From the sequence record PX645697.1: 64,000 nt of DNA; one strand, given 5' to 3'. This DNA is from a phage. The position numbers were made by a program, and so were the translations under genes. This document shows positions 14,674 to 35,939 of this stretch, one piece after another. The notes under the pieces are model-generated. The model had not been told where the DNA came from. It made no database searches and was given only the letters and a program-made list of their open reading frames with translations. Every line of letters starts with the position of its first letter. Within the stretch, counting starts at the first letter, position 1.

Positions 14674-14677
14674 AGGA

Positions 14678-14698
14678 TTGCCCCTTCGGGGGCTTTTA
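14678..14698 (+). terminator. intrinsic terminator
   Basis: GCCCC-TTCG-GGGGC followed by TTTT. Confidence 0.5.
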
Positions 14699-14767
14699 GA
14701 AGTTAAACTAGTGAATAGGTAATGAAACTAATATATCCCAAGAGGTTAATTTATAGGAGACACTCAA

Positions 14768-14986
14768 ATGAAAATGATGAAACAAGCTGTATATGGTTTA
14801 GTTTGTTTAGGTGCAGGAGTCGTGGTATCTACTGCAATCCCTGTAAGCGCAGTTCATCCATTAGTTACAGCACCTGCTCCAGTAGAGAAACTTAGTTCTC
14901 AATGTAAGCAGCGAACCATTCAAAATAATCTAGTTGTTATTTGTCCTGATGCTGAATCTAACGCTCTGAGAAAGATACTACCTTAA
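14768..14986 (+). CDS. small protein with N-terminal hydrophobic segment (possible holin or secreted protein)
   Basis: 72 aa; MKMMKQAVYGLVCLGAGVVVSTAIPVSA hydrophobic stretch; sits directly upstream of lysozyme. Confidence 0.4.
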   Translation: MKMMKQAVYGLVCLGAGVVVSTAIPVSAVHPLVTAPAPVEKLSSQCKQRTIQNNLVVICPDAESNALRKILP

Positions 14987-15015: not shown

Positions 15016-15507
15016 ATGGATAACGCCGCATTGCCACCTGTACAACTAAACTTAAGCCCAGCTGGAATGGAATTCATCATGAAGCATGAGGGTATGAGAA
15101 CCAAGGCTTATAAAGATTCCGCAGGTATCTGGACTATATGTGTAGGGGCTACGCGCGATATGAATGGTTATCCGGTTAGACAAGGATTAACGTATTCTAT
15201 AGAGGATTGTCTAGCTCTGCTAGATAGAGACACACAAGACTCTGTTCGTGCTACTCAGAAGAACATAAAGGTTCCTTTACTAGTTCATGAGTTTGATGCA
15301 CTCACTTCTTTCAACTTCAATGTTGGCAGTGGGGCTTTGAGCACATCTAAGTTAAGGAAGGTAATCAATGGAGATGTTAAGGGGGATGTTTATTCCGAAT
15401 TTCTTCGTTGGGATAAAATAACGGTCAAGGGAGAGAAGCAGAGAAGTCAGGGTCTTCATAATAGAAGAGTTGCAGAAGCTAATCTTTACACCGAAGGTAA
15501 ATATTAA
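15016..15507 (+). CDS. lysozyme, glycoside hydrolase family 24 (endolysin or virion-associated)
   Basis: 163 aa; KHEGMRTKAYKDSAGIWTICVGAT catalytic-region motif typical of T4 E / P22 gp19-type lysozymes. Confidence 0.8.
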   Translation: MDNAALPPVQLNLSPAGMEFIMKHEGMRTKAYKDSAGIWTICVGATRDMNGYPVRQGLTYSIEDCLALLDRDTQDSVRATQKNIKVPLLVHEFDALTSFNFNVGSGALSTSKLRKVINGDVKGDVYSEFLRWDKITVKGEKQRSQGLHNRRVAEANLYTEGKY

Positions 15508-32917: not shown

Positions 32918-34403
<1,486 letters not shown>

Positions 34404-34404
<1 letters not shown>

Positions 34405-34667
34405 TATTCTATTCCACGCTCTTTAAGAGCTTCTAACAATCCGTTGTGATTAGCAGCACATTCTGTGTACTGGTCCTGATACCACTCCAACGTAGTGGCT
34501 AGTGCTTTTCCTTGAGCACTCTCTAAAAGAGGTAGGTCAACCCTACATTCAGCTTTTAGGTTTGTTGGTAAGGGCATTGATTGCCTGCTGTTGTCGCTCG
34601 TTGAACAAGCTGACATACTCATCACTAGCGCAGACATTATAAAAAACTGGTTTAGTTTTCTCATAAT
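34404..34667 (-). CDS. candidate o-spanin (outer-membrane lipoprotein, Rz1-like), overlapping i-spanin in another frame
   Basis: internal start MRKLNQFFIMSALVMSMSAC with lipobox-like SAC; mature part contains prolines and Cys. Confidence 0.4.
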
Positions 34668-34923
34668 GCATCTCTTTATAAATGGTTTCCGTGTTCTTCT
34701 TCCAGTTAGATAAACCGGTAAGAACCCTCTGAGCAACTTCATCAGCTGCTCTATTTCTTTCAATCTCTAACTCTTGTTGATGTTTCTCTTTGTCCAGATT
34801 ACTGCTGTCTGTTTGATATTCGTTAAACTTCATACCACCAAAGAATACAAGAGCTGAGAAAACGATAAACCCTAAGTTATCACTTAATGTGTTTTGCATG
34901 TTGTCTCCAACGAAAAAAGCCAC
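34549..34923 (-). CDS. candidate i-spanin (Rz-like)
   Basis: 124 aa; N-terminal TM LGFIVFSALVFFGG then charged helical region; C-terminal SDEYVSLFNERQQQ resembles lambda Rz C-terminus. Confidence 0.45.
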   Translation of the reverse strand: MAFFVGDNMQNTLSDNLGFIVFSALVFFGGMKFNEYQTDSSNLDKEKHQQELEIERNRAADEVAQRVLTGLSNWKKNTETIYKEMHYEKTKPVFYNVCASDEYVSLFNERQQQAINALTNKPKS

Positions 34924-34956
34924 CCAGAGGTGGCTAAGCTATAACAAGGAGAGTTA

Positions 34957-35703
34957 TTAGAATGGGCTATCGTTGTCGTCTTCGTAAGTAGAAGCAGGCT
35001 CTTTATCAATCGTAGGGATTGAAGGAGTAGCTTCTTTCTGCTCTGTTTCAGAAGCACGAGTAATTTCACGACCAGCCAGAGGCATGTTCTTAGCGTCATT
35101 AGCTTGAGTAAGCAGGTTGCGCTGGAACGGGAACATCAGTTGATAGGATGCTACGTTCTCATCGGTTTCAGCATACGGTTCGAAGAATACCAGAGGACTA
35201 CGAGCTTCACCAACTGCTGCACGATATTTAGTTGGGATTGGAGAAATGGTCTTGATGGAGTTTTTAACTTCACCAGCTTTGTTAGTGTAAGAGTTAACCA
35301 GAATGTTAACAGGCTGGCCTAACAGAACATCCTTGAACCAAGACAGATCACCTTTCAGCGCTTGAATACTTGGGTCAATCATCTTGCAAAGATCAAGAAT
35401 ACCAGAGTTCTTAGCTCGTGGGTTTACATCATAGCTCTTGAACTGGCAAGCCGGACGTGGTTCTAATGCCTTACCATCGGAATCTTTACCAGTAGCATCA
35501 ACACCAATCAGCTCGAAAGCTAAATCCATACGGAAAGCCGGACTCTTAGGAGTTACTGCTTTGGTCTTCGGGTCAATCCAAGGATCACGATTGTGAACAC
35601 CCAAACCTACTACACGAACAATACGTGCTTCGTATTCACCATCAGGGATTACATCGTAGTTGGATTTACGGGAAGCAGTTGCGATAGTTGGAATCATAGA
35701 CAT
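34957..35703 (-). CDS. single-stranded DNA-binding protein (T7 gp2.5-like) with acidic C-terminal tail ending in Phe
   Basis: 248 aa; C-terminus ...TYEDDNDSPF; optimised codon usage; sits beside putative origin region. Confidence 0.55.
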   Translation of the reverse strand: MSMIPTIATASRKSNYDVIPDGEYEARIVRVVGLGVHNRDPWIDPKTKAVTPKSPAFRMDLAFELIGVDATGKDSDGKALEPRPACQFKSYDVNPRAKNSGILDLCKMIDPSIQALKGDLSWFKDVLLGQPVNILVNSYTNKAGEVKNSIKTISPIPTKYRAAVGEARSPLVFFEPYAETDENVASYQLMFPFQRNLLTQANDAKNMPLAGREITRASETEQKEATPSIPTIDKEPASTYEDDNDSPF

Positions 35704-35762
35704 ATTGTAATTTCCTTATTTAATTTGAAAGATTGTTGCTCTCTTTGAGCGGTTATGTATAG

Positions 35763-35771
35763 TATACATTA
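35763..35771 (-). promoter_or_regulatory. TAATGTATA promoter-like motif upstream of SSB-like gene
   Basis: exact 9-mer on - strand about 59 nt upstream of ATG 35703. Confidence 0.5.
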
Positions 35772-35834
35772 CGCTTATACCGATAAGAGTACTATATAAT
35801 ATAAGTATCTTTGGTAGTAGATATAACACATTAG

Positions 35835-35843
35835 TAATGTATA
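35835..35843 (+). promoter_or_regulatory. TAATGTATA motif on + strand, divergent from the SSB promoter
   Basis: exact 9-mer; would drive rightward transcription antisense to - strand genes. Confidence 0.35.
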
Positions 35844-35939
35844 TATTGTATAGCTGATAAAGTTATTGCAGGCTTGTATATTGGGCAATTCACAGAATCC
35901 CTTGCAAGTACCGAAGGGCAGGAGCCACCTGCGAGATAA

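Follow-up and report, generated by a model that had tools for sequence, protein, structure and literature searches.

A probable two-component spanin of a phiEco32-like Kuravirus encoded apart from the holin and endolysin genes

Does a pair of overlapping genes, placed far from the endolysin gene of a phage and on the opposite strand, complete the lysis of the host? The question is raised by positions 34404 to 34923 of record PX645697.1, a stretch of 64,000 nucleotides of phage DNA that is called the window in the following. An original prediction, made from the letters alone, had proposed a spanin-like pair there. Our answer, to which we give a probability of about 0.9, is that the two genes specify the two-component spanin of a phiEco32-like Kuravirus, made up of a protein in the inner membrane (i-spanin) and a lipoprotein in the outer membrane (o-spanin), and that it most likely disrupts the host outer membrane at the end of infection.

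The window comes from a phiEco32-like coliphage. Over bases 33900-35800 it is 97-99% identical to phiEco32, Paul and Ec3-ASingh; 99 phage records match this region, led by Ec3-ASingh (99.1%), with phiEco32, Paul, MN03, SU10 and ShigP1 at about 97%. The best-matching phages are all podophages of the Kuravirus/Gordonclarkvirinae group with E. coli as host, and the phiEco32 genome is collinear with the window at an offset of about 870 bp.

Gene structure and sorting signals of the pair

The i-spanin gene (34549..34899, minus strand) encodes a protein of 116 amino acids beginning with MQNTLSDNLGFIVFSALVFFGGMKF and is the ortholog of phiEco32 gp39 and CPT_Paul_036. Its longest open reading frame, 34549..34923, is GTG-initiated, and the gene had been predicted to extend to 34923. 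The start is likely the ATG at 34899 rather than this GTG. The ATG follows a ribosome-binding site (GGAG, 34905..34908, minus strand), which is annotated at the same place in Paul, and is the annotated start in Paul, phiEco32 and ECBP2, whereas the GTG lacks a ribosome-binding site and falls within the 3' arm of a hairpin that resembles a terminator. The start was therefore moved to 34899. A transmembrane helix is predicted from hydrophobicity at residues 9-28, approximately (codons 34816..34875, minus strand), and the most hydrophobic 15-mer, residues 9-23, has a mean Kyte-Doolittle value of 2.23. An AlphaFold2 model computed from the single sequence is all-helical, with helices at residues 3-28, 36-77, 80-91 and 93-111. 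The protein contains a single cysteine, Cys90, which is invariant across eight relatives.

The o-spanin gene (34404..34664, minus strand) is the ortholog of CPT_Paul_035 and phiEco32 gp38. It encodes a predicted prolipoprotein of 86 amino acids and has a ribosome-binding site within the i-spanin gene (AAGAG, 34672..34676, minus strand), annotated equivalently in Paul. The N-terminus reads MRKLNQFFIMSALVMSMSAC followed by STSD, and it is composed of a basic n-region, a hydrophobic core and the lipobox Met17-Ser18-Ala19-Cys20 (codons 34605..34616, minus strand), with Cys20 as the predicted lipidated residue and a serine at position +2. The segment MSALVMSMSAC fits a PS51257-type lipobox pattern applied as a regular expression. 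In addition, the GenBank note on the Paul o-spanin, whose signal peptide is identical to that in the window, gives a LipoP SpII score of 18.0 with cleavage at 19/20, so that the lipoprotein signal with a SAC lipobox named by the original prediction is borne out. It is the +2 rule that governs Lol sorting of lipoproteins, and Ser21 predicts sorting to the outer membrane. Further cysteines are found at positions 40 and 69, and Cys20 and Cys69 are invariant across eight relatives. In the structure model, a disordered linker at residues 21-43 is followed by a helix at residues 50-82 with a predicted local distance difference test (pLDDT) score of 70-84.

Signals of this kind are rare in the window. 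A six-frame scan of the 64 kb for ATG-started open reading frames of at least 50 amino acids with the lipobox pattern returned four, at three loci, compared with a mean of 0.33 per window expected by chance from mononucleotide shuffles. Those at the other two loci do not resemble signal peptides. Over the whole window, the surroundings of the endolysin gene included, no lipobox frame other than the o-spanin comes after a transmembrane-protein gene or overlaps one, as the o-spanin does at the 3' end of the i-spanin gene.

The two genes share 116 nucleotides of dual-coding overlap (34549..34664, minus strand), in which the o-spanin is read in the +1 frame relative to the i-spanin; this is the overlapped Rz/Rz1 architecture in a different frame that had been claimed. 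Since the o-spanin extends 145 nucleotides past the i-spanin stop codon, the arrangement is "overlapped" and not "embedded" in the terms of Kongari et al.

The overlap is conserved in distant relatives. In KBNP1711, ECBP2 and L014 (a divergent 88-kb IMG/VR contig), both frames are open, with the o-spanin in +1 and 116-131 nucleotides of overlap, although i-spanin identity falls to 49%, the value for L014. Nucleotide identity to the window in the i-only, overlap and o-only segments is 86%, 93% and 74% for KBNP1711, 77%, 89% and 71% for ECBP2, and 54%, 74% and 62% for L014, respectively. An overlap whose identity exceeds that of both flanks is the signature that dual coding would be expected to leave. 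Even at 28-55% identity the o-spanin has kept its start codon, the lipobox cysteine and two further cysteines, and among relatives in general both frames, the lipobox cysteine and the periplasmic cysteines are retained at identities as low as 26-49%. A published rule states that two-component spanins have cysteines in the periplasm that serve for disulfides between molecules (PMC6139136), and Cys90 of the i-spanin together with Cys40 and Cys69 of the o-spanin fits this rule, which suggests that disulfides may form between the two proteins. Of the features by which Summer (2007) and Kongari et al. (2018) recognise two-component spanins, the pair also shows a small i-spanin with one N-terminal membrane helix and a predicted, largely helical C-terminal part, an o-spanin with a signal peptidase II signal and a +2 residue other than Asp, and one of the accepted gene arrangements (embedded, overlapped or separated).

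Homologues and the weighing of a role in lysis

Profile searches place both proteins in phage protein families. The i-spanin matches PHROG 1152, labelled "Rz-like spanin", with E=1.2e-37 (residues 3-116 on positions 6-127 of a 127-position profile). The o-spanin matches PHROG 2425 with E=3.5e-27 (residues 6-84 on positions 3-82 of 86); no function has been assigned to this family, whose members are nevertheless the o-spanin partners, and there is a weak second match to PHROG 456, again "Rz-like spanin". A tblastn search gave 389 phage records for the o-spanin and 450 for the i-spanin, and in every case the two genes form an overlapping pair. Outside the kuraviruses, homologues with 26-41% identity occur in Felixounavirus, in 9NA-like Salmonella phages and in Erwinia, Citrobacter, Klebsiella, Pectobacterium and Proteus phages, and curated records of these distant homologues name the proteins i-spanin and o-spanin. 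Gene order links the pair to lysis: in Salmonella phage Solent, a homologous overlapped pair stands directly after a holin/antiholin gene, an endolysin gene and another holin/antiholin gene. In Proteus phage RS10pmA the homologous pair directly follows a gene annotated as "peptidase", possibly an endolysin. Taken together with the LipoP score of the Paul ortholog, PHROG 1152, the annotated homologues and the Solent cassette support the Rz/Rz1-like reading of the original prediction. The pair would work like Rz/Rz1, and like the T4 spanins, with no membership of those families shown.

From these signals and homologies we infer localisation, complex formation and a role in lysis along the following lines, which are those of the standard two-component spanin model. 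The N-terminal helix of the i-spanin would fix it in the inner membrane, with a mostly helical domain exposed to the periplasm. The o-spanin would be translated from its own ribosome-binding site inside the i-spanin gene in the +1 frame, lipidated at Cys20, cut by signal peptidase II and, because its +2 residue is serine, delivered by Lol sorting to the outer membrane, where it would sit in the inner leaflet. It would span back through a flexible, proline-containing linker and the C-terminal helix, so that the C-terminal parts of the two proteins could bind and form disulfide-linked complexes crossing the periplasm. Such complexes would be held in the peptidoglycan mesh until the wall is degraded. 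After the holin has triggered and the GH24 endolysin has degraded the wall, the freed complexes would collapse, fuse or disrupt the outer membrane and thereby complete lysis.

The other lysis genes lie elsewhere in the window. The gene for the holin (14768..14986, plus strand; 72 amino acids; PHROG 11161 "holin", 2.3e-48) corresponds to phiEco32 gp16, which is annotated as a holin, and the gene for the endolysin of the GH24, T4-lysozyme type (15016..15507, plus strand; 163 amino acids; PF00959, 3.7e-32; PHROG 7 "endolysin") corresponds to gp17. Both stand between a tail-fibre gene and a tail gene. The distance from the spanin pair to the endolysin gene is 18.9 kb and the strands are opposite, as for gp16/gp17 in phiEco32. 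The earlier statements that the lysozyme gene lies about 19 kb away on the plus strand among tail genes, and that lysis functions are dispersed, therefore hold. There are precedents for such a separation. The spanin genes of T4 lie apart from those for holin and endolysin (PMC6139136), and the prolate podophage Privateer also has its spanins separated from these two genes. The annotation of Felixounavirus Mushroom shows neither a holin nor an endolysin within about 3-4 kb of its spanin pair, and lysis genes are apparently dispersed in Felixounavirus too.

Several results weigh against a role as spanins. A search of the literature brought up no experiment on spanins of this family, and the lysis function rests on architecture and synteny. 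In the Pfam scan neither protein matched lambda Rz (PF03245) or Rz1 (PF06085) at E<=1, and the NCBIfam scan of both proteins gave no spanin family, the sole match being Mfa1, which hit the signal peptide of the lipoprotein; the scans thus do not establish homology to Rz/Rz1 of lambda, which have been tested. No homology to the T4 spanins PseT.3 and PseT.2 was detectable either, with hhalign probabilities of 0.8% and 2.6%, and sequence searches of the PDB with both proteins gave nothing meaningful. The pair is not adjacent to the holin-endolysin cassette, adjacency being the usual but non-obligatory arrangement. On the structural side, the models of both spanins are of low confidence. Of the transmembrane-plus-coiled-coil protein originally predicted, the membrane helix stands and the coiled coil is weakly supported: 31 of 500 shuffled sequences did as well when heptads were scored by a crude test, which is not significant, and the pLDDT of the i-spanin model is 58.8. 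Basic residues precede the membrane helix in relatives but not in the i-spanin of the window, and for this reason its N-in topology is assumed and not predicted. Finally, the middle-class timing discussed below is taken from the phiEco32 map position and not from data on genes 38 and 39.

Three other explanations were weighed against the spanin interpretation. The pair could be an envelope module for superinfection exclusion or receptor masking, comparable to Llp of T5 or to Cor, that is expressed before the late genes and has nothing to do with lysis; outer-membrane disruption would then be independent of spanins or due to another gene. Such a module would suit a place in the middle block, where the sigma and macro genes also lie and the holin and endolysin are 18.9 kb away, and would agree with the unlabelled PHROG 2425 and the lack of experiments in the searched literature. 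Exclusion lipoproteins, however, need no type-II membrane protein encoded by an overlapping gene as an obligate partner, whereas here the two genes stay paired and overlapping in phages of very different groups and homologues stand inside canonical lysis cassettes. Besides, the lipobox scan found no other spanin-like candidate in the window, and the tested T4 spanins themselves lie among early and middle genes. We give this explanation only a slim chance. Still less probable is that the 116-residue protein is a timing regulator of the holin/antiholin type, like RI or T of T4, with the lipoprotein as its accessory, so that the pair would time lysis. A single N-terminal helix with a small periplasmic domain, and expression ahead of the late genes as judged by position, agree with this idea, but a separate holin-family protein adjoins the endolysin, Solent has two holin/antiholin candidates beside its homologous pair, and the Ser +2 sorting signal and the conserved periplasmic cysteines are hallmarks of spanins.

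The remaining explanation takes the +1-frame lipoprotein for a chance open frame and regards only the membrane protein as real. The databases would seem to favour it, since most GenBank records omit the o-spanin or call a 57-residue frame from Met30. Against this, the open frame, its start, the lipobox cysteine and two further cysteines are kept down to 28-55% identity, the overlap shows extra conservation, and only about 0.33 lipobox frames are expected per window. Moreover, in KM01, Bas87 and SU7, where an HNH endonuclease gene splits the overlap, the mature o-spanin has gained a replacement signal peptide with a lipobox, which would be pointless unless the lipoprotein is needed. We assign the chance frame hardly any probability, and on the sequence comparison conservation effectively refutes it.

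Transcription, neighbouring genes and insertions

Directly upstream of the pair is the gene-40 homolog (34957..35703, minus strand; 248 amino acids), which matched only PHROG 6599 (unknown function) and no family of known function. Its C-terminus is acidic, ending in YEDDNDSPF, and resembles the C-termini of bacterial SSB proteins; the tail DDNDSPF is the sole basis of the label "SSB-like". Downstream are the macro gene (33964..34404, minus strand; PF01661), whose ATG overlaps the o-spanin stop codon as TAATG, and the sigma factor gene, gene 36 (33297..33944, minus strand). The order gene-40 homolog, i/o-spanin and sigma gene is retained in L014, and the placement of the spanins is thus old within the phiEco32-like group.

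The pair had been placed between SSB-like and macro genes in an early block. The macro gene is confirmed by PF01661, and "early" has to be replaced: by the phiEco32 map position, the block belongs to the middle cluster. The leftward cluster of phiEco32, with DNA polymerase, nucleotide-metabolism genes and the sigma gene, is of the middle class, and the promoters of its gp36 sigma factor have a single consensus element, tAATGTAtA, mapped before genes 6, 13, 26, 40, 58 and 68 (PMC8948821). An exact TAATGTATA element, which is the gp36-sigma middle/late consensus, is found in the window at 35763..35771 (minus strand), about 60 nucleotides upstream of the gene-40 homolog, and it corresponds in position to the mapped promoter before phiEco32 gene 40. 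Between the gene-40 homolog and the i-spanin gene there is a hairpin like that of an intrinsic terminator (34913..34935, minus strand; AGCCACC-TCTG-GGTGGCT and six T), an annotated terminator in Paul. Its RNA folds with -17.6 kcal/mol (z = -2.4), and among five phages the stem is invariant and the loop alone varies. By position, the spanins would be middle genes transcribed leftward from the gp36-sigma promoter before gene 40, on transcripts that read through the terminator preceding the i-spanin and that would be common to the macro and sigma genes.

Other promoter-like elements were considered in this region. For the sigma gene of phiEco32, a sigma-70 promoter is predicted inside gene 37. 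A sigma-70-like match at 34664-34636 (minus strand) was rejected as chance, the region having five such matches compared with 8.6 in shuffles, and it cannot serve the o-spanin because it starts at the o-spanin ATG. The TAATGTATA element occurs in two exact copies, 35835-35843 (plus strand) and 35763-35771 (minus strand), oppositely oriented within about 80 bp in an AT-rich stretch upstream of gene 40. Near-matches are found on the plus strand at 35753-35761 and 35844-35852, and the plus-strand copies have no obvious gene to serve.

Might the displacement of the spanins from the other lysis genes itself be functional? Spanin complexes of lambda and T4 are inert until peptidoglycan is degraded, and early accumulation of spanins should thus be harmless. 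One could then picture a unit in the order gp36-type promoter, gene 40, terminator, i/o-spanin, macro gene and sigma gene 36, in which read-through sets the spanin dosage and complexes build up before the late holin and endolysin. We regard this as unlikely. If it were true, the displacement could tie the readiness of the outer-membrane step to the change from middle to late expression, or the periplasm-spanning complexes could have a function ahead of lysis, and a hairpin preceding the holin and endolysin genes would fit a common design of low-dose read-through for all lysis genes.

That hairpin is a terminator-like GCCCC-TTCG-GGGGC followed by TTTT at 14676-14699 (plus strand), between the tail-fibre gene and the holin gene, and the holin-endolysin pair directly after it may depend on read-through like the spanins. 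A gp36-type element with one mismatch, TAATTTATA, occurs at 14747-14755 just before the holin gene. It was rejected as a promoter because transcription would start after the ribosome-binding site and because one-mismatch matches number 19, compared with 18.97 expected. The 72-residue holin has a single clear hydrophobic helix and starts with Met-Lys-Met-Met-Lys (14768-14782, plus strand), resembling the dual-start motif Met1-Lys2-Met3 of lambda S, where one gene gives both holin and antiholin.

In at least seven related phages (KM01, EK010, E20-1, Bas86, Bas87, SU7 and PAS59), the spanin overlap is interrupted by a gene for an HNH homing endonuclease, about 545 bp long. The region concerned is 1790-2350 of L006 (Bas87) and 1019-1500 of L016 (KM01), equivalent to 34549-34664 of the window, which is uninterrupted there and likely represents the homing target. 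In the split phages, the i-spanin receives a substitute C-terminus with its own stop codon, the original o-spanin start is dead and traces of the former ends can still be recognised. The mature o-spanin is joined to a different signal peptide, again with a lipobox, which is encoded in another frame of the HNH 3' end; it reads MLTKKKQKSCLVILLASSLMAC in Bas87 and MIHWKELGVHIKKKLLSCTGILLAFSLSAC in KM01, and the GenBank record of SU7 calls an O-spanin from within the HNH gene. A reading of the insertion in Bas87 and KM01 as an intron was rejected, as no group I or II match was found in Rfam and both genes are complete unspliced; since no Rfam intron matches, the i-spanin of Bas87 is probably misannotated as a "join". 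Kongari et al. describe a parallel case in T5 versus Shivani/phiR201 (PMC6139136). SU10 carries a different HNH gene at the terminator that separates the gene-40 homolog from the i-spanin (L015 1359-1772; about 34925-34955 of the window). As this gene differs in kind and site, the spanin surroundings have been invaded by homing endonucleases more than once.

Annotation and comparison with known systems

The spanin pair is already known from phiEco32-type coliphages, in which it has been both catalogued and annotated. PhiEco32 appears under overlapped two-component spanins in Kongari et al. (2018), with its i-spanin in a 15-member family "JH2" together with Felix01 and its o-spanin in a group of four with NJ01, ECBP2 and KBNP1711 (PMC6139136). 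PHROG 1152 stands for the JH2/FelixO1-type i-spanins and PHROG 2425 for the o-spanins of the phiEco32 group. GenBank annotates i- and o-spanin genes in Paul, ShigP1 and IMEP8, and a 2025 kuravirus paper lists a holin, an endolysin and a distant o-spanin on the complement strand; the genome announcement of Paul does not mention lysis genes. On the other hand, many kuravirus records in GenBank and RefSeq truncate the o-spanin at an internal methionine or omit the gene. For example, phiEco32 (RefSeq gp38), SU10, ECBP2, KM01 and Bas87 have it as a 57-residue "hypothetical protein" from Met30 without signal peptide or lipobox, the part that corresponds to 34404-34578 of the window (minus strand; compare phiEco32 gp38, L002 3505-3678). 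PHROG 2425 could take an o-spanin label. For the engineering of kuraviruses for therapy, it matters that the putative outer-membrane lysis function lies in the middle block beside the sigma gene and not with holin and endolysin. The case also confirms that an overlapped spanin pair can be correctly recognised from raw sequence alone, without tools.

The closest known systems are gp39/gp38 of phiEco32 and their counterparts in Paul, which are the same genes. Identity is 97-99% for the DNA, 95-100% for the o-spanin and 94-100% for the i-spanin; overlap, frame, neighbours, terminator and promoter element match, and the differences are point substitutions only. More distant are Felixounavirus (FelixO1, Mushroom) and the 9NA-like phages (Solent), in which both proteins are homologous at 26-41% identity with the same overlap and lipobox. 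The motifs EKT.P.F.N.C..(D/P).Y of the i-spanin and Y..C...(H/A)N.L of the o-spanin are common to all three groups, and the cysteines are conserved. What differs is the position of the pair: it ends a canonical cassette in Solent, follows polynucleotide kinase near rIIB in Mushroom, and in the window has gene 40 on one side and the macro and sigma genes on the other.

When compared with the tested spanins of T4, PseT.3 and PseT.2, the sizes are close (117/83 amino acids, compared with 116/86 here), the o-spanins of both phages have a predicted C-terminal helix, and the genes of both lie among non-late genes, far from the holin gene t and the endolysin gene e in the case of T4. The T4 genes are "separated", whereas those of the window overlap, and hhalign aligns the membrane helix and the lipobox only. 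A kinship to PseT.3/PseT.2, suspected from the sizes and from the polynucleotide kinase neighbour in Felixounavirus, was rejected on the hhalign result. Polynucleotide kinase stands beside the spanins both in Felixounavirus (Mushroom, L018 1816-3549) and in T4 (pseT, L020 6003-7782), although these spanins show no detectable kinship in sequence.

Lambda Rz/Rz1, the prototype of two-component spanins, resembles the pair in combining a type-II inner-membrane protein with an outer-membrane lipoprotein, in the +1 frame and in the periplasmic cysteines. Unlike the o-spanin of the window, Rz1 is fully embedded, proline-rich and non-helical; the lambda i-spanin has 153 amino acids compared with 116 here, and the lambda genes end the lysis cassette. 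In LysB/LysC of P2, the prototype of the overlapped arrangement, the o-spanin gene begins within the i-spanin gene and continues beyond it as in the window, but the proteins belong to a different sequence family in the tables of Kongari et al. and the genes are located in the lysis cassette.

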